NCBI GenBank assembly: GCA_010909165.1
Contig: VJWM01000401.1
Coordinates: 1 to 18,205 of the forward strand
Origin: Anthoceros angustus
Lineage: Eukaryota; Plantae; Anthocerotophyta
Direction: 5' to 3'
Length of the DNA: 18,205 nucleotides
Positions within the stretch are counted from its first letter, which is position 1. Every line of letters begins with the position of its first letter. Under the pieces are notes generated by a model, which was not told where the DNA came from, did not search any database, and saw only the letters and a list, made by a program, of their open reading frames with translations. This document shows positions 1 through 18,205 of this stretch, in pieces. A program made the translations under genes and the position numbers.

Positions 1-24
1 TCCGTCCGGATCCATAGCAGCACG

Positions 25-838
25 ATGTCGGGGCCGATGTGGAGATGCACGAGCCGCGACGTGGCTGAGCCGAGATGGGCCGCACCATAGGGTACAAAGA
101 CACACCTACGGATTAGTATTGGTCAACATTGACGAGGACGCATCAAGAGAGCATCCATCGGGGTGATACCCAAGCTAGTCAACGTGATGGCAACCACCAA
201 CCTTCACGTGCAATTGACTTGCATCATTTGGGCCTCCACCTCCCCAACGTGAGTACCGCCCGAGCAAAACGGCGGAGCTATGGCAACGTGAGGGTCCGAC
301 TCGGTCCTGGCCTTACCGACATTGCGCGTGTTCGTGTCGACGTGTGAACGTGCTAGGACCAGCATCGCCGCCAATGTAATGGTGTTTGCGAGAAGTCGGT
401 CGCGATGGTCAACAGTTGGGGTACAATGCACATTTTGATCCTAACGACTTCACGGTTTCCAACATTGTGCCGGACGCGAAGTGCTTAAAGATAAAGATAG
501 ATACGCAATCGACTTGGTAGAGCTTCACGCAACCCTAGCCAAGATATGAGCCGGCTCAGTCGAAACGATTGCGCCTCGACGCACCGGCATTGAGAGGGTT
601 CAAGGGTTGATAGCGAAGTTCAAGAGAACTTGGCCGTCACTATGTTCCATTCAGACACCTCCACATCTCCGAGGAAGGACTATTGCACCGTCAGATTTAA
701 GTTTTTGAACAGATCCCATCCCACCGCACACCAAACGAAAAGAACGGTAACCAACCCGACTGGGACGCAGACGAGCTCCGTCGCAAGAGAAAGCGGTCGA
801 AAAGGACTACTTCCATGACCGAATCATATCAATTGTGA
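25..838 (+). CDS. TBP: Divergent TBP-family (TATA-binding protein-like) gene, copy 1, frameshifted as read
   Basis: Same unit as copy 2. In-frame pieces include YGNVRVRLGPGLT and AVTMFHS. Several indels break the frame. Confidence 0.85.
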
Positions 839-1271
839 CTATAGGGAGTATGGCTTGGATTCGATCAATTTGATTAGTTGGACAATTGAAACACATTGTA
901 AACAAATGAAAGAAATTTTGATGGAAATGAAAGTGATGTTCTCACTTGCATGCACCGGGGTGAGGGAAAAGGAAGGCACCGCCATTCGCTAAACCATCAA
1001 TGAGCATTTGTTGTCCTTGGGTCATGGTGCGTAATATTATTATAGTTTTTATCGAGACATTCTAGCTTGCAGCATTGGCCAAAGGCCAAGGACAAGTAGT
1101 CCTATAAGTATAACGCAGAGCTAGTATATAGGTAGTAGCTACTACCACTCCAACGAAAGTCGCGCGCCCTTGAAACAAACCATTTCCGTCCGTGCGGTAG
1201 GCTGCAGCCACCAGTCCAACGAAAGTCGTGCGCACTTGAAATCATTTCCCGTCCGGATCCATAGCAGCACG

Positions 1272-2103
1272 ATGTCAGGGGCCGATGTGGAGATGCACGA
1301 GCCGCGACGTGGCTGAGCCGAGATGGGCCGCACCATAGGGTACAAAGACACACCTACGGATTAGTATTGGTCAACATTGACGAGGACGCATCAAGAGAGC
1401 ATCCATCGGGGTGATACCCAAGCTAGTCAACGTGATGGCAACCACCAACCTTCACGCAATTGACTTGCATCATTTGGGCCTCCACCTCCCCAACGTGAGT
1501 ACCGCCCGAGCAAAACGGCGGAGCTATGGCAACGGTGAGGGTCCGACTCAGCGGGTCCTCGGGGCCTTACCTGACATTGCGCGTGTTCAGGTCAGGACGT
1601 GTGAACGTGCTAGGACCAGCATCGCGTCAGCAACAGAATGGTGTTTGCGAGAAGCTGGTCGCGATGGTCAACAGGTTGGGGTACAATGCACATTTTGATC
1701 CTAACGACTTCACGGTTTCCAACATTGTGCTGGACGCGGAAGTGCTTAAAGATAAAGATAGATACGCAATCGACTTGGTAGAGCTTCACGCAACCCTAGC
1801 CGAAGATATGAGCCGGCTCAGGCTGAAACGATTGCGCCTCGACGCACCGGCATTGAGAGGGTTCAGTGGGTTGATAGCGAAGTTCGAAGACAGCAACTTG
1901 GCCGTCACTATGTTCCATTCAGGACACCTCCACATCTCTGGAGGAAGGACTATTGCACCGTCAGATTTAAGTTTTTGAACAAGATCCCATCCTCGCACAC
2001 CAAACGAAAAGAACGGTAACCAACCCGCTGACTGATGCGATCCGGTCGCAAGAGAAAGCGGTCGAAAAGGACTACTTCCATGACCGAATCATATCAATTG
2101 TGA
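1272..2103 (+). CDS. TBP: Divergent TBP-family gene, copy 2 (best preserved), frameshifted as read
   Basis: ORF 1411-1698 gives IPKLVNVMATTNLHAIDLHHLGLHLPNV (cf. TBP VPxLQNIVSTVNLxxxLDLxxIALxxxNAEY). ORF 1526-1978 gives LTLRVFRSGRVNVLG, LGYNAHFDPNDFTVSNIVLDAEV, IDLVEL, GFSGLIAKF and AVTMFHSGHLHISGGRT. These match both TBP pseudo-repeats (TALIFSSGKMVCTG, LGFxAKFxDFKIQNMVGSCDV, FPGLIYRM, VLLIFVSGKVVLTGAK). Alignment by eye. Confidence 0.92.
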
Positions 2104-2350
2104 CTATAGGGAGTATGGCTTGGATTCGATCAATTTGATTAGTTGGACAATTGAAACACGCTTGTAAACAAATGAAAGAAATTTTGATGGAAATGAAAGT
2201 GATGTTCTCACTTGCATGCACCGGGGTGAGGGAAAAGGAAGGTGGAAGGCACCGCCATTCGCTAAACCATCAATGAGCATTTGTTGTCCTTGGGTCATGG
2301 TGCGTGTAATATTATTATAGTTTTTATCGAGACATTCTAGCTTGTCAGCA

Positions 2351-2542
2351 TTGGCCAAAGGCCAAGGACAAGTAGTCCTATAAGTATAACGTGCAGTAGC
2401 TAGTATATAGGTAGTAGTAGCTACTACCACTCCAACGAAAGTCGTGCGCCCTTGAAACAAACCATTTCCGTAGGCTGCAGCCACCACCAACGAAAGTCGT
2501 GCGCACTTGAAATCATTTCCCGTCCGGATCCATAGCAAGACG
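2351..2542 (+). promoter_or_regulatory. Putative promoter module of the TBP-like unit (present in each spacer)
   Basis: TATAAG/TATAA at 2379-2389 and TATATA at 2404-2409. Palindrome GTAGTAGCTACTAC at 2414-2427. Imperfect direct repeat CCAACGAAAGTCGTGCGCxCTTGAAA..CATTTCC at ~2432-2471 and ~2487-2523, ending ~20 nt before the ATG at 2543. Function is inferred. Confidence 0.5.
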
Positions 2543-3361
2543 ATGTCAGGGGCCGATGTGGAGATGCACGAGCCGCGCGACGTGGCTGTCGGAGCTGAGA
2601 TGGGCCGCACCATAGGGTACAAAGACACACCTACGGGATTAGTATTGGTCAACATTGACGAGGACGCACTTCGAAGAGAGCATCCATCGGGGGTGATACC
2701 CAAGCTAGTCAACGTGATGGCAACCACCAACCTTCACGTGCAATTGACTTGCATCATTTGGGCCTCCACCTCCCCAACGTGGAGTACCGCCCGAGCAAAA
2801 CGGCGGAGCTATGGCAACGTGAGGGTCCGACTCGGTCCTGGCCTTACGACATTGCGCGTGTTCGTCGGGGCGTGTGAACGTGCTAGGACCAGCATCGCCG
2901 CAATGTAATGGTGTTTGCGAGAAGTCGGTCGCGATGGTCAAGTTGGGGTACAATGCACATTTTGATCCTAACGACTTCACGGTTTCCAACATTGTGCCGG
3001 ACGCGAAGTGCTTAAAGATAAAGATAGATACGCAATCGACTTGGTAGAGCTTCACGCAACCCTAGTCAAGATATGAGCCGGCTCAGTCGAAACGATTGCG
3101 CCTCGACGCACCGGCATTGAGAGGGTTCAGTGGGTTGATAGCGAAGTTCAAGAGAAACAGCGTCACTATGTTCCATTCGTGACACCTCCACATCTCGAGG
3201 AAGGACTATTGCACCGTCGTGCAGTTTTTGAACAGATCCCATCCATCGCACACCAAACGAAAAGAACGGTAACCAACCCACTGGGGCATGCGGCGATCCG
3301 GTCGCAAGAGAAAGCGGTCGAGTGATGGACTACTTCCATGACCGAATCATATCAATTGTGA
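2543..3361 (+). CDS. TBP: Divergent TBP-family gene, copy 3, frameshifted as read
   Basis: ORF 2507-2908 gives the N-terminus MSGADVEMHEPRDVAVGAEMGRTIGYKDTPTGLVLVNIDEDALRREHPSGVIPKLVNVMATTNL and TLRVFVG. Confidence 0.87.
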
Positions 3362-3805
3362 CTATAGGGAGTATGGCTTGGATTCGATCAATTTGATTAG
3401 TTGGACAATTGAAACACATTGTAAACAAATGAAAGAAATTTTGATGGAAATGAAAGTGATGTTCTCACTTGCATGCACCGGGGGTGAGGGAAAAAGGAAG
3501 GCACTGCCATTCGCTAAACCATCAATGAGCATTTGTTGTCCTTGGGTCATGGTGCGTGTAATATTATTATAGTTTTTTTATCGAGACATTCTAGCTTGCT
3601 CGCAGGCATTGGCCAAAGGCCAAGGACAAGTAGTCCTATAAGTATAACGTGCAGTAGCTAGTATATAGGTAGTAGTAGCTACTACCACTCCAACGAAAAA
3701 GTCGTGCGCCCTTGAAACAAACCATTTCCGTCCGTGCGGTAGGTCGACCACCACCAACGAAAGTCGTCGCGCTTGAAATCATTTCCGTCCGGATCCATAG
3801 CGACG

Positions 3806-4614
3806 ATGTCGGGGCGATGTGGAGATGCACGAGCCGCGACGTGGGCGTGAGCCGAGATGGGCCGCACCATAGGGTACAAAGACACACCTACGGATTAGTA
3901 TTGGTCAACATTGACGAGGACGCATCAAGAGAGCATCCATCGGGGTGATACCCAAGCTAGTCAACGTGATGGCAACCACCAACCTTCACGCAATTGACTT
4001 GCATCATTTGGGCCTCCACCTCCCCAACGTGGAGTACCGCCCGAGCAAAACGGCGGAGCTATGGCAACGGTGAGGGTCCGACTGGTCCTGGCCTTACCGA
4101 CATTGCGCGTGTTCGGTCGACGTGAACGTGCTAGGACCAGCATCGCCGCAATGTAATGGTGTTTGCGAGAAGTCGGTCGCGATGGTCAACAGTTGGGGTA
4201 CAATGCACATTTTGATCCTAACGACTTCACGGTTTCCAACATTGTGCCGGACGCGAAGTGCTTAAAGATAAAGATAGATACGCAATCGACTTGGTAGAGC
4301 TTCACGCAACCCTAGTCAAGATATGAGCCGCTCAGTCGAAACGATTGCGCCTCGACGCACCGCATTGAGAGGGTTCAAGGTTGATAGCGGTTCAAGACAA
4401 GAACTTGGCGTCACTATGTTCCATTCGTGACACCTCCACATCTCGGAGGAAGGACTATTGCACCGTCGTCACGAAGTTTTTGAACAGATCCCATCCCACC
4501 GCACACCAAACGAAAAGAACGGTAACCAACCTCAAGACTGACGACGAGCAATCCGGTCGCAAGAGAAAGCGGTCGAAAAGGACTACTTCCATGACCGAAT
4601 CATATCAATTGTGA
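3806..4614 (+). CDS. TBP: Divergent TBP-family gene, copy 4, frameshifted as read
   Basis: Same unit. The C-terminal frame reads GRKRKRSKRTTSMTESYQL* with TGA at 4612-4614. Confidence 0.85.
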
Positions 4615-5027
4615 CTATAGGAGTATGGCTTGGATTCGATCAATTTGATTAGTTGGACAATTGAAACACTTGTAAACAAATGAAAGAAATTTTGATGGAA
4701 ATGAAAGTGATGTTCTCACTTGCATGCACCGGGGTGAGGGAAAAGGAAGGCACGCCATTCGCTAAACCATCAATGAGCATTTGTTGTCCTTGGGTCATGG
4801 TGCGTGTAATATTATTATAGTTTTTATCGAGACATTCTAGCTTGCTCGCAGGCATTGGCCAAAGGCCAAGGACAAGTAGTCCTATAAGTATAACGTGCGA
4901 GCTAGTATATAGGTAGTAGCTACTACCACTCCAACGAAAAAGTCGCGCCTTGAAACAAACCATTTCGTCTGCGGTCACGAAAGTCGTCGCACTTGAAATC
5001 ATTTCCGTCCGGATCCATAGCGGCACG

Positions 5028-5853
5028 ATGTCGGGGCGATGTGGAGATGCACGAGCCGCGCGACGTGGCTGCCGAGATGGGCCGCACCATAGGGTACAAA
5101 GACACACCTACGGATTAGTATTGGTCAACATTGACGAGGACGCATCAAGAGAGCATCCATCGGGGTGATACCCAAGCTAGTCAACGTGATGGCAACCACC
5201 AACCTTCACGTGCAATTGACTTGCATCATTTGGGCCTCCACCTCCCCAACGTGGAGTACCGCCCCGAGCAAAACGGCGGAGCTATGGCAACGTGAGGGTC
5301 CGACTGGTCCCTGGCCTTACCGACATTGCGCGTGTTCGTGTCGGGGCGTGTGAACGCAGGACCAGCATCGCGTCGCCAATGTAATGGTGTTTGCGAGAAG
5401 TCGGTCGCGATGGTCAGTTGGGGTACAATGCACATTTTGATCCTAACGACTTCACGGTTTCCAACATTGTGCCGACGCAAGTGCTTAAAGATAAAGATAG
5501 ATACGCAATCGACTTGGTAGAGCTTCACGCAACCCTAGCCAAGATATGAGCTCAGTCGAAACGATTGCGCCTCGACGCCGGCATTGAGAGGGTTCGGTGG
5601 GTTGATAGCGAAGTTCGAAGACAGCAACTTGGCCGTCACTATGTTCCATTCAGGACACCTCCACATCTCTGGAGGAAGGACTATTGCACCGTCGTACGAA
5701 GTTTTTGAACAGCTGTATCCCATCCTACTGGCACACCAAACGAAAAGAACGGTAACCAACCCCGCACCTGGGACGGTACGAGCAGTCCCGGGTCGCAAGA
5801 GAAAGCGGTCGTAGCAGTGGACTACTTCCATGACCGAATCATATCAATTGTGA
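5028..5853 (+). CDS. TBP: Divergent TBP-family gene, copy 5, frameshifted as read (alternative stop TAG at 5812-5814)
   Basis: ORF 5584-5814 reads GLIAKFEDSNLAVTMFHSGHLHISGGRTIAPSYEVFEQLYPILLAHQTKR...GRKRKRS*. YEVFEQLYPIL matches the TBP C-terminal helix YxAFENIYPIL. Confidence 0.9.
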
Positions 5854-6280
5854 CTATAGGGAGTATGGCTTGGATTCGATCAATTTGATTAGTTGGACAA
5901 TTGAAACACAGTTGTAAACAAATGAAAGAAATTTTGATGGAAATGAAAGTGATGTTCTCACTTGCATGCACCGGGGGTGAGGGAAAAGGAAGGCACCGCC
6001 ATTCGCTAAACCATCAATGAGCATTTGTTGTCCTTGGGTCATGGTGTAATATTATTATAGTTTTTATCGAGACATTCTAGCTTGTCAGCATTGGCCAAAG
6101 GCCAAGGACAAGTAGTCCTATAAGTATAACGCAAGCTAGTATATAGGTAGTAGTAGCTACTACCACTCCAACGAAAAGTCGCGCCTTGAAACAAACCATT
6201 TCCGTCTGCGGTAGGGTCCAGCACCACCCAACGAAAGTCGTGCGACTTGAAATCATTTCCGTCCGGATCCATAGCAGACG

Positions 6281-6575
6281 ATGTCGGGGCGATGTGGAGA
6301 TGCACGAGCCGCGCGACGTGGCCGGAGTCGAGATGGGCCGCACCATAGGGTACAAAGACACACCTACGGATTAGTATTGGTCAACATTGACGAGGACGCA
6401 TCAAGAGAGCATCCATCGGGGTGATACCCAAGCTAGTCAACGTGATGGCAACCACCAACCTTCACGCAATTGACTTGCATCATTTGGGCCTCCACCTCCC
6501 CAACGTGGAGTACCGCCCCGAGCAAAACGGCGGAGCTATGGCAACGTGAGGGTCCGACTCGGGTCCCTGGGGCCT
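6281..6575 (+). pseudogene. 5' part of TBP-like copy 6, truncated at the junction with unrelated AT-rich sequence
   Basis: Identity to the unit ends at ...GACTCGGGTCCCTGGGGCCT (6575). Non-array sequence CACAAAGTGGTTTTTTTGGGG follows. Confidence 0.9.
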
Positions 6576-6677
6576 CACAAAGTGGTTTTTTTGGGGTAGT
6601 GTAAATTTTTAGAGAGAGAAAATTGACCTTTTGGTCATTATTTTACCCAGAGAGTAAAATTCATTACAGTATAGTAG

Positions 6678-6750
6678 AAAATCATCTACCATCAAGGTAC
6701 AAAACAACTGAACCATACAAGTGGGGTAAAAATCATCTACCATCAAGGTA
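6678..6750 (+). repeat. 22-bp direct repeat near the left end of the insert
   Basis: AAAATCATCTACCATCAAGGTA at 6678-6699 and 6729-6750. Confidence 0.85.
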
Positions 6751-6859
6751 GAAAATAGAGCACTAGAGTAGAAAACATGACGACCAAGTGAATACCAGCT
6801 GGGTCTAGAAGCTCATTCTAGAAATCCCACCAAAATCGCTAATCGACAAAACATTTTCT

Positions 6860-7660
6860 TAAATAATATTCATGCGGATCCGGGATATACAAAAACCAAC
6901 AAAGAAACCTTTTCTTTGCGAGTTTCTGTATATCCGTAATGGCATGAAATACAAATTCAACTAATGAAGAGTAAAGATAGATTGAACTCGCTAGATTGAA
7001 CTCTACTTCAACAACAATGGAACCTACAAACAAACAAAACAAAGACACAAACCGTGATTAGTGATACTAGAAAACGGAAATAATCATAGCAAATACTTAG
7101 GAAATGATACTCACCTTATTTAGGAAATTGATCGCATAATTATCTGATTGAAAACGTAATTTTCACGACCACTTGGCTTGATTGGCGGTTGTACAGATCA
7201 TTCTTGGCAACCAATTGATGAAGCGAGGACTTGGGCGAAATTGTCCCTTCCGCAAGGTGACAACCTAATAAAATACAACCATTGATTTTCAAATTAATAA
7301 AGAGCATAAGAAAACTTACCAATCTCGACGGATTTTCGCAGATAGCAAATATCTCGAGACACATTCTTCTCTCGCCTCTCTTTTCCACCGCAGTCTTGAA
7401 CCTCTTGCTCCATCTGCCGCCGCTTTCTTGATGCTTAATGTGCTCTTGTCTCCTCTCCACATTTCTCCGCCTGGATCTCAAGGGCTTTCTCTCTTTGCTT
7501 AGAGACTCGTAATTCAACCGCTACTGTCTCTCTATAAGAGCCTCCAAATCCTTTTGTCACGAAACTCCAATTCTGCCCATCATACTCCAATTCCGTACTC
7601 GCGCAATCTCGGTCACCGCTCAAAGCCACTTCCATTTCCATTTGAGTCACAATACAATAT
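6860..7660 (-). CDS. Multi-exon coding remnant of unknown function (a second gene or the 3' extension of the YR gene), frameshifted
   Basis: Minus-strand GT-AG introns at 7319-7265 (GTAAGT...TATTAG) and 7114-7024 (GTGAGT...TTTGTAG), plus a donor at 6908. Exon 7023-6909 is open (GSIVVEVEFNLASSIYLYSSLVEFVFHAITDIQKLAKK). Charged segment ELRVSKQREKALEIQAEK. Confidence 0.45.
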
Positions 7661-7667
7661 CGAGGTG

Positions 7668-7845
7668 CTACCAACATTGTGCCGACGCACCGGCATTGAG
7701 AGGGTTCGGTTGATAGCGAAGTTCAAGACAAGAACTTGGCCACTATGTTCCATTCAGTGACACCTCCACATCTCGAGGAAGGACTATTGCACCGCATTTA
7801 AGTTTTTGAACAAGGACTACTTCCATGACCGAATCATATCAATGT
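7668..7845 (+). repeat. Internally deleted fragment of the TBP-like unit
   Basis: CCAACATTGTGCCGACGCA|CCGGCATTGAGAGGGTTC...GACTACTTCCATGACCGAATCATATCAAT matches non-contiguous parts of the unit. Confidence 0.9.
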
Positions 7846-8013
7846 TGAAATGAGGGATGAAGGTCGCTTCCACTAGTCGCAGGATTCACAACGCCAAGAT
7901 AAACATAATCGAAACTCCAAAAAGAAGTGAAACAAACAAAGACAAAGAATCAACCTTGTCAACATATGGAATTTCACTAGAACACCCGATTGTTGGTCTG
8001 TTATCCATCGATG

Positions 8014-8215
8014 CCTTGGCCACTATGTTCCATTCAGACACCTCCACATCTCTCGGAGGAAGGACTATTGCACCGCATTTAAGTTTTTGAACAGATCCCA
8101 TCCCACCGCACACCAAACGAAAAGTCGCGACTTGAAATCATTTCCGTCCGGATCCATAGCGAAGTTCAAGACAAAGAACTTGGCCACTATGTTCCATTCA
8201 GACACCTCCACATCT
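8014..8215 (+). repeat. Rearranged mosaic of TBP-like unit fragments
   Basis: TBP 3' segment, then spacer segment, then TBP 3' segment again. Joined at ACGAAAAG (8117-8124) and ATAGC (8156-8160). Confidence 0.9.
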
Positions 8216-8389
8216 TGACATTGTTCAAAGGTCCTTTCATGATGAACAAGGAGTTGTAGAGACCTAACACACAAAACAAGTGACACGTTTAATCAAAACA
8301 AGTCCCTACAAACTTGCAACAAATCTCAAACACTTACATTGTTAACTGTTGCACTCGCAAGTGCTTAAAGATAGATACGCAATCGACTA

Positions 8390-10479
8390 GAAAATACAAT
8401 TTCGAGTCACATTGAGGAGCTTGACGGAAGAACACCCTTAAATCATCCGCATCCGATTCTTTCTTCGTTCAAAAGCTCCTGATAGGATCGCCGTTCACCA
8501 GGAACAAGGACTCTTCTCATTGTTTTGCTTGACTGACGGCCATATCTGCAAACCATATCAAAACATCAGGAAGAAACAAACAAAGGACTGAAATGTCACA
8601 AGCTTTCAAAACATATTACCTTGAGAATCCAGCATCTGTTTTATGGCCAGTCACACTTCTCCCAAAGATCGAAGGCACCGAGCCATCGTCAACGTGTAAT
8701 CATTGTTACACGGCAGCTCTTATTGGTGTAATAGCCAACGAGCCCAGCCCAGCCATGGTCTTCATGAACCTTGACAACATTCCTTTTGAAACACGGAGTT
8801 TTGCATACCAAGCCTAGCCAAAAACAAAACAGCTTAGTAAATACAAACCACAAAACTTAAGCCCAATAACAACAAAACTTAAGCCCAATAACAACAAACT
8901 TACATTTTGATCTTGGGTTATCAATTGTTGAATTGAACAAAACCCCGAATTGATGATTTTTGTCGCTTGCACCACTTGGGAGAGTGTTCAATGACTCTAA
9001 AAGTTTCGATAACATCCTCGTCAGAATCTTGACCTTTTTGACTAAATGCTCACCGGTAATTCTTCATGTCCACTTTATAATTTTTGAAAGCCGTTCTTGA
9101 TACCGCAAATAAAAGCGAGCTTAATACGACATCAAAAACAACCAAAACATACGAAAAGATACAATGAACAAAACAACCAAAACATCGAACAAAAGGTCCT
9201 CTGAATCACGAGAACGAAGTCCACGGAGTTATGTAACTCTTCACCACCTCGAACTCCAAACTGGTCATGCAAAAATATGCACACCGCAAACAGAGAGACC
9301 TCCGTGTTTAAAACCATAAATGAACAATCAAAGTGCACCCCTAAACCAACAATATTACCTTTTTGAGCCCCGCCCAAATGAGCATTGATGATCTCTGTGA
9401 AAGAATCGCTCATCATCAAAATCAACTTCACCTCTTTTCGACATGACACAATCCAAGATCCTTGATTTTCATGGACAACCACGGGACCCATGGAAAATTC
9501 CATGAAACATGTTGATCAACATCGAACCGCTTTGGTTCAAGATGCACTTCCTTGTTAAAATTCGGTTAAAACCACGAAAAGAAAGACATCAACGACAAGA
9601 GAGAAATAAATCCATGTGAATGAAAGAACTATCAAAATCAACAAGTCAAAAACATCACTACTTACGTTTCGAGAAAATCTCCTGTTGTCCTTGATTCGAA
9701 CTTGATGGAAAAAGGTATCGAATAAGATTTAGATCCTTGTAAGGAATATCCTCAACAGAGTATCCCATCCCATCCCCACTCACTTTCATAAAGGCCACAG
9801 GCGACTTGACCGCTTATTCGCCGCTTGGACCTATCCTCCCCACCACTCAAGCATCATTCAGCCCTCCGGGACTATTGGTCAAATCCGCCTCAAAATTGCT
9901 TCATCATCAATTTCCTCCATACCCATGGCAAAGTCATCTTGGGATCATCACACTTTAGCCTCTCAAACATATCAAGCACTTCTTGATCGGGGATGACTCG
10001 GTCGAACCACAGGCATGGAAAAGCCCACCAGAAGCATTCTGCTCAACGCAGACACAAATCTCTAGACTGCAGGTTTTGGCAAGACTCACAACCATGGGAT
10101 CGTCGGTTATCAAGAAATCATTCTCCCCACAACCGGACCCCTCTCTCGAATCGACATAGTTAGTAATCTGCAAGAGGACCTTCAACCAAAGCCAGTGTCG
10201 ATCCACCCTTCTCCTCTTGAACAAACTCGGGCATCGAGCGTCCTTCTTGGATGAAAATCGCCTTGGCGGTTTGGGCAAGTCTTTTGGGAACTAAGTAAGT
10301 TCCTTCATGCACCAAGACACCATCAACTTTACCATCATCCTGCAGCGGATGAGTTGCAGTATGTAGAATCGCGGATTTGACACGCTGTCTTGTATATGGC
10401 TTGGCCATAACTTCAGCCAAGGATCCTTGTTTTCTTCCCGGCCCAGCAGGCGCCCAGTGGGTTTTCTTTTAGGAGCCAT
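8390..10479 (-). CDS. Intron-containing tyrosine recombinase, Crypton/DUF3504-like, frameshifted as read
   Basis: Minus-strand motifs appear in canonical order. IFLHDQFGVRGGEELH (Arg codon 9251-9249); FKNYKVDMKN; AWYAKLRVSKGMLSRFMKTMA (from 8813); AGLVGYYTNKSCRVTMITR (8748-8692); VTGHKTDAGFS-R|Y, where splicing the 8619-8547 GT-AG intron joins AG|A TAT and gives Tyr at 8545-8543. Further introns at 8903-8814 and from 9665. Candidate ATG at 10479 (MAPKRK) follows a 5' intron 10576-10480. The 3' end is uncertain. Confidence 0.85.
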
Positions 10480-11889
10480 CTGCAAAAGCGAGAACAGAAT
10501 TGAGTGGTCAAGGAACTTGACAACACAAACATCCTGCAGGAAGTTGACAAAAAGACAAAATAAAGAAAGCACTTACATGGTGTTCACAACTTCCAGATAG
10601 GAACTCTTGAAGGGTCTAACAATTGATTATAAAACAATCGAGACGAGGATAGGGATGGGGGATATGGCACACACATTCATTGAATATACACATTGTTAAA
10701 TATTGAAATCCTCCACTTTTGGTTAGTGAGAGATAACTCCTTTTCAAACAACACCCACATACTTCCTGTAATAGAAGACTTTGTCGGCAAGTTAGATTTA
10801 AGAGGAAAAACAAACAAACAAACAAAACAAACTACGAGATTCAATCATGACTTCAAATTCAGTAAATGGTGATCCCGACCACGATGACAATCGAATGTTG
10901 TGTCAACCTTCACACGATGAACAATAAAGCCTACAAACAGAATTAGATTATTCACGATAGAACTAAACGTTAAAAGACAACGAGGTAATTATCAATGAGA
11001 AATCATCAAGTTTAAAATACTCACATACCATACGCGGGTTACACCGAACAAACGCCTTATACGTTAAGGCATTATCGCATCAAAGCAAGGACCTTAGAAT
11101 AAGAATGAGACAAAACATTGAAACACAAAACAACACAAACCTTGGCCTTGAAACAAACCACAATTCAACAAACAAGATACGTAAAGCAATAACAAAAGAA
11201 GCTTTCTGACGTACAAAAGGTCCCAAATGTGTCCGCCACACGTCCAAACCTTGATGCATCAAAAGAGCGGGAGAGTAAGATCACACAAGCAAGGAAACGC
11301 TCTCAAAGAAAGAGAGAACAAGATTTGCAGATCGACACAACAAACAACAAAACAACACAAACCTTGGCCTTGAAACAAACAAATGAAAGAACCTTCAAAC
11401 AAAAAACCAACCTTTACGTCAACAACCTCTTGTACACTCCCTGCGTTTCAAAAGGAATAAAGATACAAGAATACCGCTCAACATTATAACAATGAAAGCT
11501 CAAGAGAAGATACATTCATTTTCCAACAACAACATATCGTAAACAGAAAACCGATTGACACAAAGACATTTTGATGACTTACCAAAGTGGTCGATCTAAA
11601 CCGCACTTCAAACAAAAAGTCGCGCCTTGAAACAAACACAACGGGAGGGTTACAACACACCAGCAAAGCGAAAGTCGAGAACAAAGACTTGAACAGCAAC
11701 AAGCGCTTTTAACACACATGGGACCACGACGACAACGACGACAAAGAGACACTTCCACCAAACAAACAATCAAGCAATACGAGATTTTGCAAGAGAAAGA
11801 ACACAAGCATCACATGCAAGTTTTGAACAAAAGTAAGCCTAGCCAACCACGTTCAAGCAAGCAAAACACGTTATGAGAGGAAGTAACAC

Positions 11890-12790
11890 CATCGACGCAA
11901 TGTAATGGTGTTTGCGAAGTCGGTCGCGATGGTCATGTGTTGTACAATGCACATTTTGATCCTAACGACTTCACGGTTTCCAACATTGCCGGACGGGCGT
12001 GCTTAAAGATAAAGATAGATACGCAATCGACTTGGTAGAGCTTCACGCAACCCTAGTCAAGATATGAGCCGGCTCAGTCGAAACGATTGCGCCTCGACGC
12101 ACCGGCATTGAGAGGGTTCAAGGTTGATAGCGAAGTTCGAAGACAGCAACTTGGCCGTCACTATGTTCCATTCAGGACACCTCCACATCTCTGGAGGAAG
12201 GACTATTGCACCGTCAGAAGTTTTTGAACAGCTGTATCCCATCCTACTGGCACACCAAACGAAAAGAACGGTAACCAACCTGACCGACGACAAGCATCCG
12301 GTCGCAAGAGAAAGCGGTCGAAAAGGTGGACTACTTCCATGACCGAATCATATCAATTGTGACTATAGGGATGGCTTGGATTCGATCAATTTGATTAGTT
12401 GGACAATTGAAACACGCTTGTAAACAAATGAAAGAAATTTTGATGGAAATGAAAGTGATGTTCTCACTTGCATGCACCGGGGTGAGGGAAAAGGAAGGCA
12501 CGCCATTCGCTAAACCATCAATGAGCATTTGTTGTCCTTGGGTCATGCGTGTAATATTATTATAGTTTTTATCGAGACATTCTAGCTTGTCACAGCATTG
12601 GCCAAAGGCCAAGGACAAGTAGTCCTATAAGTATAACGCAAGAGCTAGTATATAGGTAGTAGTAGCTACTACCACTCCAACGAAAAGTCGCGCCTTGAAA
12701 CAAACCATTTCCGTCTGCGGTAGGTGCAGCCACACCCAACGAAAGTCGCGGCGACTTGAAATCATTTCCGTCCGGATCCATAGCAAAGAC
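11890..12790 (+). pseudogene. Partial TBP-like unit (3' half of ORF plus full spacer) inside the insert
   Basis: ORF 12124-12342 reads IAKFEDSNLAVTMFHSGHLHISGGRTIAPSEVFEQLYPILL. The spacer runs to CCGGATCCATAGC (~12784) and stops before the next ATG. Confidence 0.9.
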
Positions 12791-13038
12791 ACCTTGGCCT
12801 TGAACAAAACACCTTGGCCTTGAAAGAACCTTCAAACAACAAAACAACACAAACCTTGGCCTCAAACCTTTACGACACCTTGGCCTTGAACGAAGGCGAG
12901 AAAGGCCTTAAACATTGGAAAGGGCAAAAGAACCTTGGCCCCAAAACTTAAACGACGCCTAGCGAACCTAGAACACCTTGGCCTTGAATGAGCTAGAAGC
13001 ACCTTAGCCTAGCGAACCTAGAACACCTTGGCCTTGAA
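12791..13038 (+). repeat. Cluster of ACCTTGGCCTTGAA motifs
   Basis: Perfect copies at 12791, 12811, 12877, 12975 and 13025, partial copies at 12853 and 12932, and two more at 11139 and 11361. Confidence 0.85.
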
Positions 13039-13149
13039 AAGAACCTTCAAAGAGGAGGACAAAGAAACTAAACACAAAGCAAAACACCTAAGCCTTGGCG
13101 CGAGACTGACAACCACCGGACTTGAAAACAGAATGACAAAGAACTCCTG

Positions 13150-13440
13150 AGAAGCCATATATAGGCCAGCAAACCCTAAATATTCTCCTCGGACTCTCTC
13201 TACCAAGCTGGTTTGAATTTACCAAACCTAACATCGAGCCCAATTCCAAACCAGTGGGTTGCCATTGCCGCCTACTATCAACCAAACCTAGATTCGATTT
13301 TCCAAACCTAGCCTAACGGCACCAAACCTAATCTCGAACCCCGTCGTGGGCGTAACGAAGCTCTGCGCCAACCCAGGCCCGCCACCCCTCGAACCATCTA
13401 GAACCCTAACTTTCGATTAAACATGCACATAGGGTTAGCG
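13150..13440 (-). promoter_or_regulatory. Putative leftward promoter (TATA + telo-box motifs)
   Basis: On the minus strand CCTATATATGGC at ~13155-13166. AAACCCTA at 13171-13178, AACCCTAA at 13402-13409, TAGGGTT at 13430-13436, and several AAACCTA. Telo-boxes are known plant promoter elements. Assignment to the YR gene is inference. Confidence 0.4.
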
Positions 13441-14239
13441 GTCACGCCCAACCGCGCCGCCAGTCGCGGGCTGCGCGGCCTTCTCGATCGCACCAGTGCA
13501 TTCGCTCACGCTTTGGGTGAGTCCTCGGAGAAGGTCGCGAATCGGCTCCTTCCTTTCATCTGTTACCCACTACGCGTCATCGCACTCTCTTGTTCGTGTA
13601 GGTGGCATTCCACTTTTCTCGCTTCAAAACCTTGATCCGTCCTTACAGCGTCCGCTGCTCATCTCCACCGCCACCGCCAACACGACATCAAGAAGTCTCT
13701 GGCGTCCTCACACGCTCACGCTCTTCTTTTTGTGTTCGTTCAGAATTGCCGCCCTCTTTTCTTCTCGCCCGCTCTAGGTAGCCGTAATCGCTCTTGTGTT
13801 TCTTGTTCTGCGATGTAATTTGCCTCGAGACATAGCACAAAACCTCGGCCAGCGTCCTCGTGTGTTGTCAAACACGTTTCGTCTCTTCTTTCTTTTTGTT
13901 GCAGCCATTGCAGCCGCGCTTTCTTCCTCTTCGCTCTTGGTTCCGCTCTTCGCCTCGTGAGTTCTTCAGTTGCTTTGATGCTTATTGCTCTCGAGCGTAC
14001 GACAAACGCTCGAAAGCACGGCGCCTCCGTGCGATCAAGCCACTTGTCTTTCTTTTTGTGTTTTCTGCCAATTCAACGCTTCCTTTCTTGTTGTCTTACT
14101 CATAGCGATTATCGCCTTTCTTTGCCTTGCATGATGTGTTTGCAAGACATGTTTGGCATGCGGCCAGTTGTGGAGCGACAAGCCGCGTCACTTTTTTTCT
14201 CACCCATCAGTTGGTGTTGCTCGTCGATGTGTCTGCAAC

Positions 14240-14495
14240 GCGCGGCTTGATTGCATGCAAGCTGCGCCTTGCGTGATCGCTGCGTGTCGCGTAGCGGCAT
14301 GCGCACGTATGTCGCACACGCCGTGCGGCATGCCGCGTCCGTAAAGCATGGCGGCAGGTCGCATGCGCGCAACGCACGGTGCATCGCCGGCGTAGCATCG
14401 CGCGTGTGAGTGCGCATGCTGCCGCATGCGGCATGCCGCGACACGCGTGAGTGCATGCCGCAACGCAACACTTGCGCTTGGCGGCATGCCGCCGC
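14240..14495. repeat. GC-rich block of short palindromes (GCATGC / GCGGCATGCCGC)
   Basis: GCGGCATGCCGC at ~14325, ~14428 and ~14481. Inverted repeat GCGCGGCTTG...CAAGCTGCGC at ~14240-14268. Many GCATGC and CGCG sites. Confidence 0.8.
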
Positions 14496-14515
14496 GTGTT
14501 ACATGTTATGGACTT

Positions 14516-14521
14516 TATAAA
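14516..14521 (+). promoter_or_regulatory. TATA box upstream of the plus-strand multi-exon gene
   Basis: TATAAA is followed by a pyrimidine-rich leader, a GTAAGT donor at 14581, candidate acceptors near 14645/14667/14698, and ATG at 14700. Confidence 0.5.
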
Positions 14522-14699
14522 CTCACGCCTCTCCTCTTCGAATTGAGCGCAAAGGTCACGCAAGAAGGCGCCACTCTAGTGTAAGTACATCCCAATCCGA
14601 AATTCTCACCTTGTTTCTGTTTTACGTGGGATGCGTCTTGTTCAGTCTGATTTGATTCTCTCCACAGTGATTACTGACTGATGGCTTTTTAAAATCAGG

Positions 14700-16180
14700 A
14701 TGGAATCTGAGAACGGAAGCAATAACGATTTTCAAATCCAAGAAGGTACTTGATTGTAATTCGTATTATACGTTTCTTACTTTCCTTTTACATTTACTAA
14801 TATCTTTTTGTGTCAACCCCTCACAAGAACTCATGACGCCACCCCGTGAGCGCCACTCGACAAATTACTTCCCACCCATGGGGATCCGGATATGACGCTA
14901 ATGCAGAGTTTGAACCACCACTGGAGATAAGAAAGATCGTAGAAAAAGGTATTCGGGAAAAATGATTGCGTTAGTCTGTATGTTCTTGGTCGAGTCTAAC
15001 AAAACCCGTGGGTTGCGTCCTCTGCGAGCACACAATGTTCTCTGTCATGGACAAACAAGACCTTAAGCATCTTTGCGAGATGCCTTGATTGAATAAGATA
15101 AAGAAGGTAAGCACTTTTCTTTAATTCATAAACTTGATCTAATTATGCTCAAATCCAAAATCTTAACCTAAATTATCTCTAGGATATCAAAAGAACCTTG
15201 AACAACATCAATTGGAAACGACACACTTGTGGAAAGGTTTAATGGACACCGATTTTCAATGCAAACAATGTTGGAGGGATATCAAAGTTCAATCCAGATC
15301 GGAGGTAATCAAATCTAATACATTCATACCTTCTTTGCTTCTTCACATTGACCTTATAACTTGGCATTACAGAATGCTGGAAAACAAGCTGTTGCTGCAA
15401 AAAACATAAAGGACAAAGTCGAAAAGATTGACAATAACATTGACAACGCAGCCATCTCCAATCAGGTATACAAAAAGTATTAGGTATATAATGTGCATTA
15501 ATATGATTTTGGTTTAAGAAATTAATGATTTTGGTTTTGATCGGGCAAAAAGAAAAATTGATGACTTCGAGGAGGATGGACCAACTTACGGGCCGTCACT
15601 TGAGTTCACCGAGTTTGGAAAGTGGATGAGCAATTTTCAATATCCACCACTTTTCAAGACTTTAAAGATAAGTATTGCACTTTGGGAGCATAGTCTAAAA
15701 GAGCAAGTACAGCCATCTTGAATGAAGATGGGTCCAACCCAACATTCGAGCGATGCAGACAAATCCAAGCAAGTAAGTCGATAACTTCTCTTTTCACTAT
15801 TATTTTCATTACATATAATTCTATGTAATGTAATTGCATGCATTGAATGCGAGATAGGGGCAGCAATTGAAAATAAGGAGTTGAAAACGAGACTTGTTGT
15901 CTCTCATGGAAGAACCGGAGACAACTAAAAACATTCAAAAGGTACATCGTTTGAAAGGTAATATCCGCTTGCATTCCAAAAAATTCTAATGTTTATGTTT
16001 CTTGAACATACGATCACATTTCCGGCAGGGGGGAATCTTCACGACGTGTTTAACGCTTGTCGAAAAGGTATATGCAAAGAAAGATCTTCTCCGAATTGAA
16101 ATGGAGGTAAATGACTAATTACTTTTACTTTTTGTTTGTAGTTATCGGAGAATCAAAGCGAGTTGTTTTCACTCTTTGAG
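14700..16180 (+). CDS. Multi-exon gene of unknown function, frameshifted as read; 3' end uncertain
   Basis: MESENGSNNDFQIQE, intron 14746-14827, then ELMTPPRER...SGYDANAEFEPPLEIRKIVEK. A clean phase-0 exon at 15373-15465 reads NAGKQAVAAKNIKDKVEKIDNNIDNAAISNQ. RAKRKIDDFEEDGPTYGPSLEFTEFGKWMSNFQYPPLFK lies near 15540-15660. Donors GTAAGT at 15773 and GTGAGT at 16181. No family recognised. Confidence 0.5.
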
Positions 16181-16540
16181 GTGAGTACTAAAGTTAAAAA
16201 TAGATAAGTTTTTATATATGAATTCGACAATGGTTTAAATTGCGAAATATTCTCGCTTGGATGAAATATTGAAATGATAATACATTTATCTGGACCATAC
16301 AATCAGCAGCTCAAAAGTACTATTCAAGAGACGGACCACTAACTATACCATATTACACTCCATCTACTCCAATAGAATATGTGTGATTAACCAAAACTAT
16401 TTTGATTAGAGCCTTACGATAAAGGATAAAGATAATCCTTTTATTGTGTAAAAGGATTGAAAAACGAAAATGATACGTAGTGAAGGGCAAGTTATCAGAA
16501 GAGAGAGAGAAATGACATATAAGCCGGTGCTATAGGCAGC

Positions 16541-17458
16541 CTAGTCAAGATATGAGCCGGCTCAGTGAAACGATTGCGCCTCGGCCCCGGACTCGGCCTC
16601 ACGGCCTCGGCCTTACCGACATTGCGCGTGTTCGCCGACGGCCTGAACGGTCTCGGCCTCACGGCCTCGACCGTTCTCGCCAACGGCGCCCTCCCTGGCC
16701 TTACGACATTGCGTGTTCGCCGACGGTGAACGCTAGGACCAGCATCGCGTCGCAATGTAATGGTGTTTGCGAGAAGGTCGCGATGGTCAACGGTACAATG
16801 CACATTTTGATCCTAACGACTTCACGGTTTCCAACATTGTGCCGACGCGGTGCTTAAAGATAAAGATAGATACGCAATCGACTTGGTAGAGCTTCACGCA
16901 ACCCTAGTCAAGATATGAGCTCAGTCGAAACGATTGCGCCTCGGCGCACCGGCATTGAGAGGGTTCGGTGGGTTGATAAGTTCAAGACAAGAACTTGGCC
17001 GTCACTATGTTCCATTCGTGACACCTCCACATCTCCGGAGGAAGGACTATTGCACCGTCGTAAGTTTTTGAACACGTATCCCATCCCACCGCACACCAAA
17101 CGAAAAGAACGGTAACCAACCTCGACTGACTGCAGACGAGCATCCGGTCGCAGAGAAAGCGGTCGAAAGGACTACTTCCATGACCGAATCATATCAATTG
17201 TGACTATAGGGAGTATGGCTTGGATTCGATCAATTTGATTAGTTGGACAATTGAAACACAGCTTGTAAACAAATGAAAGAAATTTTGATGGAAATGAAAG
17301 TGATGTTCTCACTTGCATGCACCGGGGTGAGGGAAAAGGAAGGCACGCCATTCGCTAAACCATCAATGAGCATTTGTTGTCCTTGGGTCATGGTGCGTGT
17401 AATATTATTATAGTTTTTATCGAGACATTCTAGCTTGTCAGCATTGGCCAAAGGCCAA
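16541..17458 (+). repeat. TBP-like unit, 3' two-thirds plus most of the spacer, with scrambled 5' junction
   Basis: Displaced fragment at 16541-16583 and GGCCTC-rich scrambled DNA at 16584-16700. Unit sequence then runs to TGA at 17201-17203, and the spacer to CATTGGCCAAAGGCCAA (17458). Confidence 0.9.
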
Positions 17459-17471
17459 CCGTGAGCATGTT

Positions 17472-18205
17472 ATGTCAGCAGGGGAAGCTGAGGCCGTTGG
17501 AGCCCTGGAATCTCTGGCGCAGACAGACTCTGCTGTCTGGTCTCTGTTGTACACTGTGCTGAAACTGTGTACAGCTAAGAAGGATTTGGTTGTGGGGCGA
17601 CGAGTTCATGATCTCACTGTCAAACTTGATTCGAATGCATACTTGGGAAAACCATATCTTGCGCATGTATGCATGTCTTAGAGGAGGCCATGGATGTGTT
17701 CACCAGGTGGGGAAACCAGATGCCTTCATGTGGTTTTCCATAATCTCTGCATACGCTAAGCATGGGAAACCTAATGAGGCCATACAACTGTACCATGAGA
17801 TGCGTAGGTCAGGAGTGAAGGCGAATGGTCACGTCTTTGTAGCTGCCCTTCAAGCTTGTGCATTGGCCGCCGACTTGGAATCTGGCAGAAAGTGCACTGA
17901 TGTTTTATACAGTGGCATTCCTCCTAACTTGTTTGTTGGCAACTGCCTGGTGTGCAAAATGTGGCGAACTGGAAGATGCACGCCAGGTTTTGACAACATG
18001 AGAAAGGATGTGGTGACATGGAATGCCCTGATATCTGGGTATGCAAAATGTGGTGAACTGGAAGATGCACGCCAGGTTTTGACAGCATGGCACAAAGGAT
18101 GTGGTGACATGGACGGCACTGATTGCTGGGTATGCACAGCAAGGGCTCGGCCAAGAGGCGCTTGTCGTGTATGAACAAATGGAGCAAGATGGGCGTATTT
18201 TGGCT
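17472..18205 (+). CDS. Pentatricopeptide-repeat protein, PLS-class-like (plant), frameshifted as read, probably running off the window
   Basis: Typical plant PPR motifs: VLKLCTAKKDLVVGRRVH, NHILRMYA, PDAFMWFSIISAYAKHGKPNEAIQLYHEMRRSGVKANGHVFVAALQACA, NLFVGNCLV, KDVVTWNALISGYAKCGELEDARQV. A ~90-bp internal duplication (17953-18023 vs 18041-18113) corresponds to one PPR motif. Confidence 0.93.

Follow-up and report, generated by a model that had tools for sequence, protein, structure and literature searches.

At the left of an 18,205-nucleotide stretch of the genome of the hornwort Anthoceros angustus (contig VJWM01000401.1; this whole stretch is hereafter called the window) lies a tandem array of a gene related to the TATA-binding protein (TBP), followed to the right by a likely Crypton-type tyrosine-recombinase gene, two further spliced genes and a truncated PPR gene. 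Self-comparison of the window revealed six units, five of them full (1.22-1.27 kb) and the last partial, all on the + strand, with starts near positions 1, 1246, 2517, 3782, 5002 and 6256 and anchor spacings of 1247, 1271, 1265, 1220 and 1254. The full units span 1..1245, 1246..2516, 2517..3781, 3782..5001 and 5002..6255, while the partial unit 6 (6256..6578) is truncated within its coding region and stops at about 6578. Unit 2 is the cleanest copy by self-comparison and by alignment with sequencing runs, and the other copies are 90-93% identical to it; unit 3 has an open N-terminal third (2543-2746) and unit 5 an open C-terminal part (5578-5760). As the first-pass annotation had said, the array is still open at the left edge of the window. 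Extra unit pieces lie beyond the array at 7683-7843, 8015-8215, 11893-12786, 16540-16583 and 16697-17458, of which the third is a partial unit on the + strand between two divergent genes and the last two belong to a jumbled lead-in with a partial unit (16540..17458, + strand) that is joined to the PPR gene. A TATATAG word, a weak TATA-like candidate, recurs in the spacer about 120-150 bases 5' of each ATG (1125, 2404, 3662, 4906 and 6140), and an Rfam scan gave no matches.

The copy number was approached through public sequencing runs, denoted as X1, X2 and X3, of which X2 derives from a second organism; the library types of X1 and X2 are not on record, and X1 may itself be the source of the window. 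In X1, unit contigs had word depths of 1244-1549, about 60-80 times the depth of about 20 seen there for a diverged low-copy paralogue, although word depth in X1 does not equal copy number. Because of this ratio the array is unlikely to be a single-copy assembly artefact, and the read-depth check that the first-pass annotation had put forward speaks for a real array.

The relationship of the unit to TBP was supported by profile, PDB and alignment searches alike, as the first-pass annotation had anticipated. The fragment 1526-1975 matched Pfam PF00352 with an E-value of 3e-8 and 33.8 bits against a cut-off of 22.9, being the one match among three unit fragments; among seven further fragments three matched at E<=0.5, and one of them, the C-terminal part of unit 5 (5539-5811; E 8.7e-6), also exceeded the cut-off (25.9 bits versus 22.9). 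With a profile score above the curated cut-off and two tandem lobes spanning the whole core, the protein belongs to PF00352. When three natural fragments (N-terminal, middle and C-terminal) were searched against the PDB, TBP or TBP-containing chains accounted for 28/28, 35/35 and 35/35 matches. In a frameshift-aware alignment, with X placed at the breaks, the unit followed plant TBP from HPSG at residue 17 through to the final helix, which reads YPIL in the unit; no gap was as large as an intron, and identity was about 33-38% over aligned columns. The identity to the 120 canonical TBPs listed was 23-32%, in contrast with the near-invariant core of the canonical plant, algal and chytrid TBPs that we compared. 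A fold model of a fragment only was weak (mean pLDDT 53-60); a fold search with model residues 1-76 gave three chains at Z>=5, all of them TBP (Z 6.2-6.5, root mean square deviation 2.3-2.7 over 63-69 residues), yet these matches are partly circular since the model was built with a TBP alignment, and Foldseek searches of PDB and BFVD with a single-sequence model returned no match at E<=0.001. That each full unit encodes a complete, two-lobed, intronless TBP core, about 30-35% identical to plant TBP, is confirmed. The coding span of unit 2 is placed at 1272..2103 (+ strand), from the first ATG to the stop after a KRKRS tail, with ends deduced from fragments, and it is broken near 1413, at 1496-1522 and after about 1965. 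The first-pass proposal of a non-canonical TBP gene that lacks introns and is amplified in the genome of a land plant is supported.

Of the four intercalating Phe residues of canonical TBP, three are retained (in VFRSG, GFSGL and MFHSG), whereas the position of the first is taken by Met or Asn, according to where the gap is placed. Both central Asn residues are kept (VNVM and SNIV). The acidic YEPEL loop of the C-lobe, on which we place the two glutamates that contact TFIIB, is swapped for a longer basic stretch, in a frame that is shared with X2 without gaps, so that neither of the two acidic TFIIB-binding residues is found. These glutamates are described as TFIIB contacts, and viral TBPs as lacking them, in the available part of Ravarani 2020 (PMC7221094), in whose main text the words "plant" and "transpos" are absent. 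The four Phe residues, and a viral TBP mimic without the acidic residues, ORF24 of KSHV (the herpesvirus associated with Kaposi's sarcoma), are likewise described in the accessible portion of PMC12529657. A YEP-like word occurs at 1803-1821 in a shifted frame, exactly where the TFIIB loop belongs, and possibly reflects an old compensated frameshift. The coding span of unit 2 carries a basic GRKRKRS tail (2043..2064, + strand), which resembles a nuclear localization signal. Likeness to X2 also covers the region just 5' of the ATG and resumes as an island at GRKRKRS before stopping just after, which suggests that the tail is conserved. Considering these residues, the protein is predicted to grip DNA without docking TFIIB, and the loss of the acidic loop would be compatible with a competitor as well as with a factor that has an adapter of its own.

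The unit protein carries the marks of a eukaryote-type TBP, namely HPSG before strand 1, the linker LGY..HF..F.V.NIV and the FEQLYPIL end, and on these motifs we assign it to that type. HPSG is present in 119 of the 120 TBPs listed, a set retrieved by a query that included a plant TBP; since these include a chytrid TBP (P0238), HPSG was ruled out as a plant-specific mark, and a plant retrocopy is for that reason plausible but unproven. The plant, algal and chytrid TBPs that we checked score within about 11 bits of each other, so donors are not separable by score. The 42-residue N-terminal fragment alone scored best in the PDB on archaeal TBPs (1mp9, E 1.1e-5), from which it follows that the ranks of short fragments are unstable. 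No close relative was found among 93 candidates in a collection of 5.8 billion proteins, 6 stretches in viral contigs, 196 in metagenomes or 118 in prokaryote genomes; a plant TBP as query against viral contigs likewise gave 0/7. An all-against-all scan of 1.84 billion representatives gave three matches, of which the only TBP was of the canonical plant type and the other two (P0001 and P0003), being long repetitive proteins, were taken as chance.

The first-pass annotation had reported at least five near-identical units of 1.25 kb, each with a TBP-fold open reading frame; the units and the TBP core hold, but an intact reading frame does not, as no assembled copy has an unbroken frame and the five full units carry 2-5 breaks each in the aligned part. 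Among the five copies, insertion or deletion events are about half as frequent as substitutions (27-39 versus 44-76 per pair), and all 48 that distinguish the four other copies from unit 2 over 1508-1963 are deletions, often of differing size at one site. The disturbed sites comprise 37/46 CHG, 36/77 CG and 3/92 isolated CHH sites, and the fraction of gap columns near CHG was 0.46 against a background of 0.17 and a best shifted null of 0.34. Different copies are clean in different stretches, as from partial polishing. In unit 2 the TBP frame is open over 1508..1963 (+ strand), where the X2 contigs align without gaps (1508-1886, 22 differences; 1857-1963, 6), giving 28 substitutions and no gap over about 450 bases, and none of the 23 changes listed creates a stop. 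At two N-terminal sites near breaks of unit 2, the letters absent from unit 2 are present in both X1 and X2. The depth of X1 falls off steeply over 1574-1641, the stretch in which the copies also diverge most, as would fit noisy reads. 5-Methylcytosine can cause deletion-type base-calling errors of this kind. Because the differences are deletion-only and CHG-centred and X2 is gap-free, we infer that the frame breaks are mostly base-calling errors on CHG-methylated DNA that was patchily polished. Errors centred on CHG would also mean that methylation of the array resembles that of a transposon.

Roughly 2 kb beyond the right end of the array, a gene with the features of a spliced Crypton/DUF3504-type tyrosine recombinase, multicopy in X1 and overlooked by the first-pass annotation, occupies approximately 8500..10480 on the - strand. 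Its motifs are FGVRGGEE at 9260, YQERLSK at 9102, WY..MKTMA at 8810, YTNKSCR at 8730 and TGHK at 8651, and the predicted catalytic Tyr (8544-8542) lies just past a 74-nt GT-AG intron (8619-8546, - strand). The five motifs are ordered within 610 nt on one strand, while the longest chain in 400 shuffles was 2. In supplement file 4 of Kojima and Jurka 2011 (PMC3212892), CryptonA rows show the same order of motifs and the same GH-x8-Y spacing. Based on these motifs, the gene likely encodes a Crypton-type recombinase. Two of 256 stretches (L001 and L002) matched intron-derived letters of the recombinase query on bacterial-looking contigs and were set aside as chance.

Two further multi-exon genes flank the recombinase gene, each with approximate extent. 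A small one with GT-AG-type breaks at 6850..7660 (- strand), which sits downstream of the recombinase gene, is multicopy in X1, has no Pfam match and has no assigned function; the other, at 14700..16200 (+ strand), is transcribed away from the recombinase gene, contains Cys/His clusters (CxxC..H..C-like) and has no significant Pfam match. Summed X1 depth runs at a similar level across 7.0-10.35 kb and 15.0-16.7 kb (mostly about 300-800 per bin), as would be expected if the recombinase and the two spliced genes were members of one multicopy family; this is consistent with a single multicopy block of at least 10 kb in fewer copies than the TBP unit. X1 had no cover over about 10.8-11.2 and 12.9-14.6 kb, which proves nothing, and little or none over 10.8-11.6 and 12.9-13.1 kb. 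The region 13200-14600, upstream of the + strand gene and with no X1 cover, is CG-rich (94 per kb) and contains short GC-rich inverted repeats. Mosaic, A-rich or jumbled short-word stretches occur at 7680-8220, 10770-11900, 12790-13130 and 16540-16750 and likely represent poorly polished consensus.

At the right end of the array, the octamer at 6572-6579, where unit 6 stops, is found again at 16596-16603, where unit sequence resumes 10 kb on at about the same unit offset; the pair could mark a 10-kb insertion into one TBP unit, with a jumbled right-hand side. No ends with the 4-6 bp terminal direct repeats of the Crypton type were located in the window. Just right of the array (6579-6800) lie two CACTA-like words, one at 6601 (- strand) and one at 6761, together with a direct repeat of 22 bases; the word at 6601 has no partner within the window, and CACTA ends were rejected. 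At the right edge, a host PPR gene (17457..18205, + strand), whose relatives have E/DYW domains, runs off the window, and its 5' end is replaced at 17457 by a TBP unit with a 2-base overlap. Its best named relatives come from a clubmoss, from Ginkgo-type gene models and from ferns (about 28-38% identity), and other proteins reach 52%; these place the host among the land plants, likely the seed-free ones. X3 covers the PPR part only; it is an RNA run only by guess, and its PPR-only cover says nothing on the expression of the TBP unit. Since 21 X3 contigs of PPR relatives run upstream of 17457 with other sequence, the TBP unit either interrupts the PPR gene or was mis-joined to it.

The proximity of a likely Crypton-type recombinase gene makes it likely that the array is cargo of a mobile element. 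The explanation that we prefer, which we hold to be about as probable as not, is that the TBP is captured cargo of a large Crypton-type recombinase element, amplified head to tail and probably silenced by CHG methylation. An intronless copy of a canonical eukaryotic TBP would have arisen and drifted to about 30% identity, been captured by, or inserted beside, a Crypton-type element, and traveled with it. The head-to-tail amplification may have proceeded via excised Crypton circles or unequal crossing-over; the accessible portion of PMC3212892 proposes that Cryptons move as excised circles. Most true copies would be open-framed, and most breaks would be errors of long reads where cytosines are methylated. 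The protein, if it is expressed, would be directed to the nucleus by its KRKRS tail and would contact the minor groove of A/T-rich DNA with a changed specificity; with no normal recruitment of TFIIB, it may serve as a DNA-binding factor specific to the element, or else as a decoy that counters host TBP, not as a second general TBP. A bolder form, a Starship-like giant Crypton element in a seed-free land plant whose own TBP keeps DNA bending, bypasses TFIIB and switches on the genes of the element or holds host promoters, is speculative and in our estimate unlikely.

Several observations weigh against captured cargo with mostly open frames. X1 carries several of the same deletions at high depth (894/921 at 1802, 636/1282 at 1674, 472/1380 at 1738 and 1945/4911 at 1922), and only 3 of 7 such sites adjoin a CHG start (background 0.28); if the X1 reads are accurate, most array copies would be truly frameshifted pseudogenes. 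The X2 TBP-like contig (1732 bases) continues into DNA unlike the unit, without a 1.25-kb tandem there. The 23 listed of the 28 X2 differences comprise 8 synonymous and 15 non-synonymous changes, with a ratio of non-synonymous to synonymous change (pN/pS) of 0.60 (P 0.17-0.31), and adding four N-terminal and three loose-end changes post hoc brought the synonymous share to 13/30 (P 0.017-0.057), so that purifying selection is a borderline hint. As for the recombinase, the motif patterns were tuned after the window and the published alignment had been seen; of the catalytic R-H-R-Y both R are present, the Y lies past the predicted splice and the H of H-x-x-R is K; and no Pfam match (PF12012) was obtained with queries that were short, frameshifted and intron-split fragments. 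Neither element ends nor terminal repeats nor a target duplication were found within the noisy window. The junctions around the extra unit pieces are jumbled and none of the listed X1 contigs spans them, so the link between array and recombinase could be partly an assembly join.

One alternative is a lineage-specific, low-copy host TBP paralogue with a TRF-like role, for which the array would be incidental and recent and the recombinase a chance neighbor in repeat-rich DNA. This alternative, which comes foremost among those that we consider and yet is unlikely, draws on the depth-20 paralogue of X1, whose identity to unit 2 is about 87% and whose alleles agree with those of X2 at 1435, 1649, 1735, 1738, 1744 and 1774, as well as on the departure of the 1732-base X2 contig from unit likeness and the X2 matches upstream of the ATG and at KRKRS. 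However, the X2 TBP-like contigs are several times deeper (30-35) than its PPR contigs (3-9), which indicates several copies if X2 is a DNA run; a second X2 copy is cut at 1553, and the selection is only borderline. The array could instead be a dead satellite, in which a TBP pseudogene fragment was amplified by unequal crossing-over or rolling-circle replication, most copies are truly broken and no protein is made. The broken state of every window copy, the high-depth X1 deletions, with that at 1802 in nearly all array-derived depth, the deletions at 1802 and 1821 common to all four other copies and a pN/pS not significantly below 1 all favor this reading, whereas deletion-only, CHG-centred and size-variable differences would be hard to obtain by real mutation, and the clean stretches differ by copy while X2 keeps the frame for about 450 bases; we regard it as improbable. 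For a centromeric satellite, the one source consulted, the accessible part of a hornwort genome paper (PMC8075897), describes only very short tandem arrays.

A viral TBP (Nucleocytoviricota or Polinton-like) that became endogenised and was then amplified at its site is very improbable, even though the gene is intronless, the loss of the TFIIB-binding signature is known from viral TBPs in the two partly available papers cited above (PMC7221094; KSHV ORF24, PMC12529657), and the N-terminal fragment prefers archaeal TBPs. Against it stand the eukaryote-type HPSG, linker and C-terminal helix, the lack of relatives in viral contigs and the all-against-all scan, which yielded only a canonical TBP. 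Furthermore, no capsid, polymerase or TFIIB family was detected among the window fragments scanned, the region left of the array lying outside the window, and the neighbors are spliced genes. Of the viral, retrocopy or mobile-element origins that the first-pass annotation proposed, a mobile-element setting is supported by the likely Crypton-type recombinase gene 2 kb away, and a viral origin is not supported.

Comparing the preferred captured-cargo explanation with known systems, the unit protein shares with canonical eukaryotic TBP (PF00352; plant TBP1/2, P0002, P0174 and P0167) the two-lobe core from HPSG to the last helix, the linker and both FxSG turns in addition to the Phe and Asn residues described above. 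Unlike canonical TBP, it is only about 30% identical, intronless and tandemly arranged, has lost the first Phe, and has a short lobe-1 loop insertion, a basic insertion in place of the TFIIB loop, a longer N-terminus and a basic C-terminal tail. The animal TBPL1/TRF2 and TBPL2 are also TBP duplicates that diverged at signature DNA-contact positions, but they are low-copy host genes and not tandem arrays. They also keep most signature residues, according to the available part of Ravarani 2020, while the unit protein has lost the TFIIB loop. The viral TBP-like factors of large dsDNA viruses, such as KSHV ORF24, similarly keep DNA-binding Phe residues, lose contacts to host TFIIB and may be used orthogonally; the unit protein differs in being of eukaryote type, with no viral relative found, and neither viral genes nor a homologue of TFIIB came to light among the window fragments scanned.

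With regard to the recombinase, the order FG.RG..E, ER.SK, WY..MK.MA, TN.S.R and TGH-x8-Y, and the presence of introns, recall CryptonA/DUF3504 elements (Kojima and Jurka 2011; Glomhoppers, PMC13465315), the latter paper, in its accessible portion, placing DUF3504 elements in opisthokonts. In the available parts of these sources, however, animal Cryptons encode the recombinase alone and some oomycete ones add a peptidase, whereas the window region adds two spliced genes and TBP units, has K for the H of H-x-x-R and has no ends that were found. The fungal Starships, with a DUF3435 captain, resemble the putative arrangement in combining a recombinase gene and several cargo genes in a large multicopy block, but their recombinase family differs, the host here is a plant, and boundaries were not located in the window. 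Literature searches on hornwort or plant TBP, TBP paralogues, transposons, viruses and Cryptons, with most subscription journals outside their scope, gave no account of such a gene.

A TBP family of about 30% identity, with tens of copies and present in the runs of two organisms, is unexpected given that TBP is among the most conserved eukaryotic proteins. The window also shows how a gene family can escape annotation through assembly errors linked to methylation, as no close relative emerged from the collection of 5.8 billion proteins. If the array is cargo of a recombinase element, a component of the basal transcription apparatus would travel on a land-plant transposon, as it does in large DNA viruses, and, if the predicted residue pattern is true, the protein would be a naturally occurring form of TBP in which DNA binding is uncoupled from the recruitment of TFIIB.

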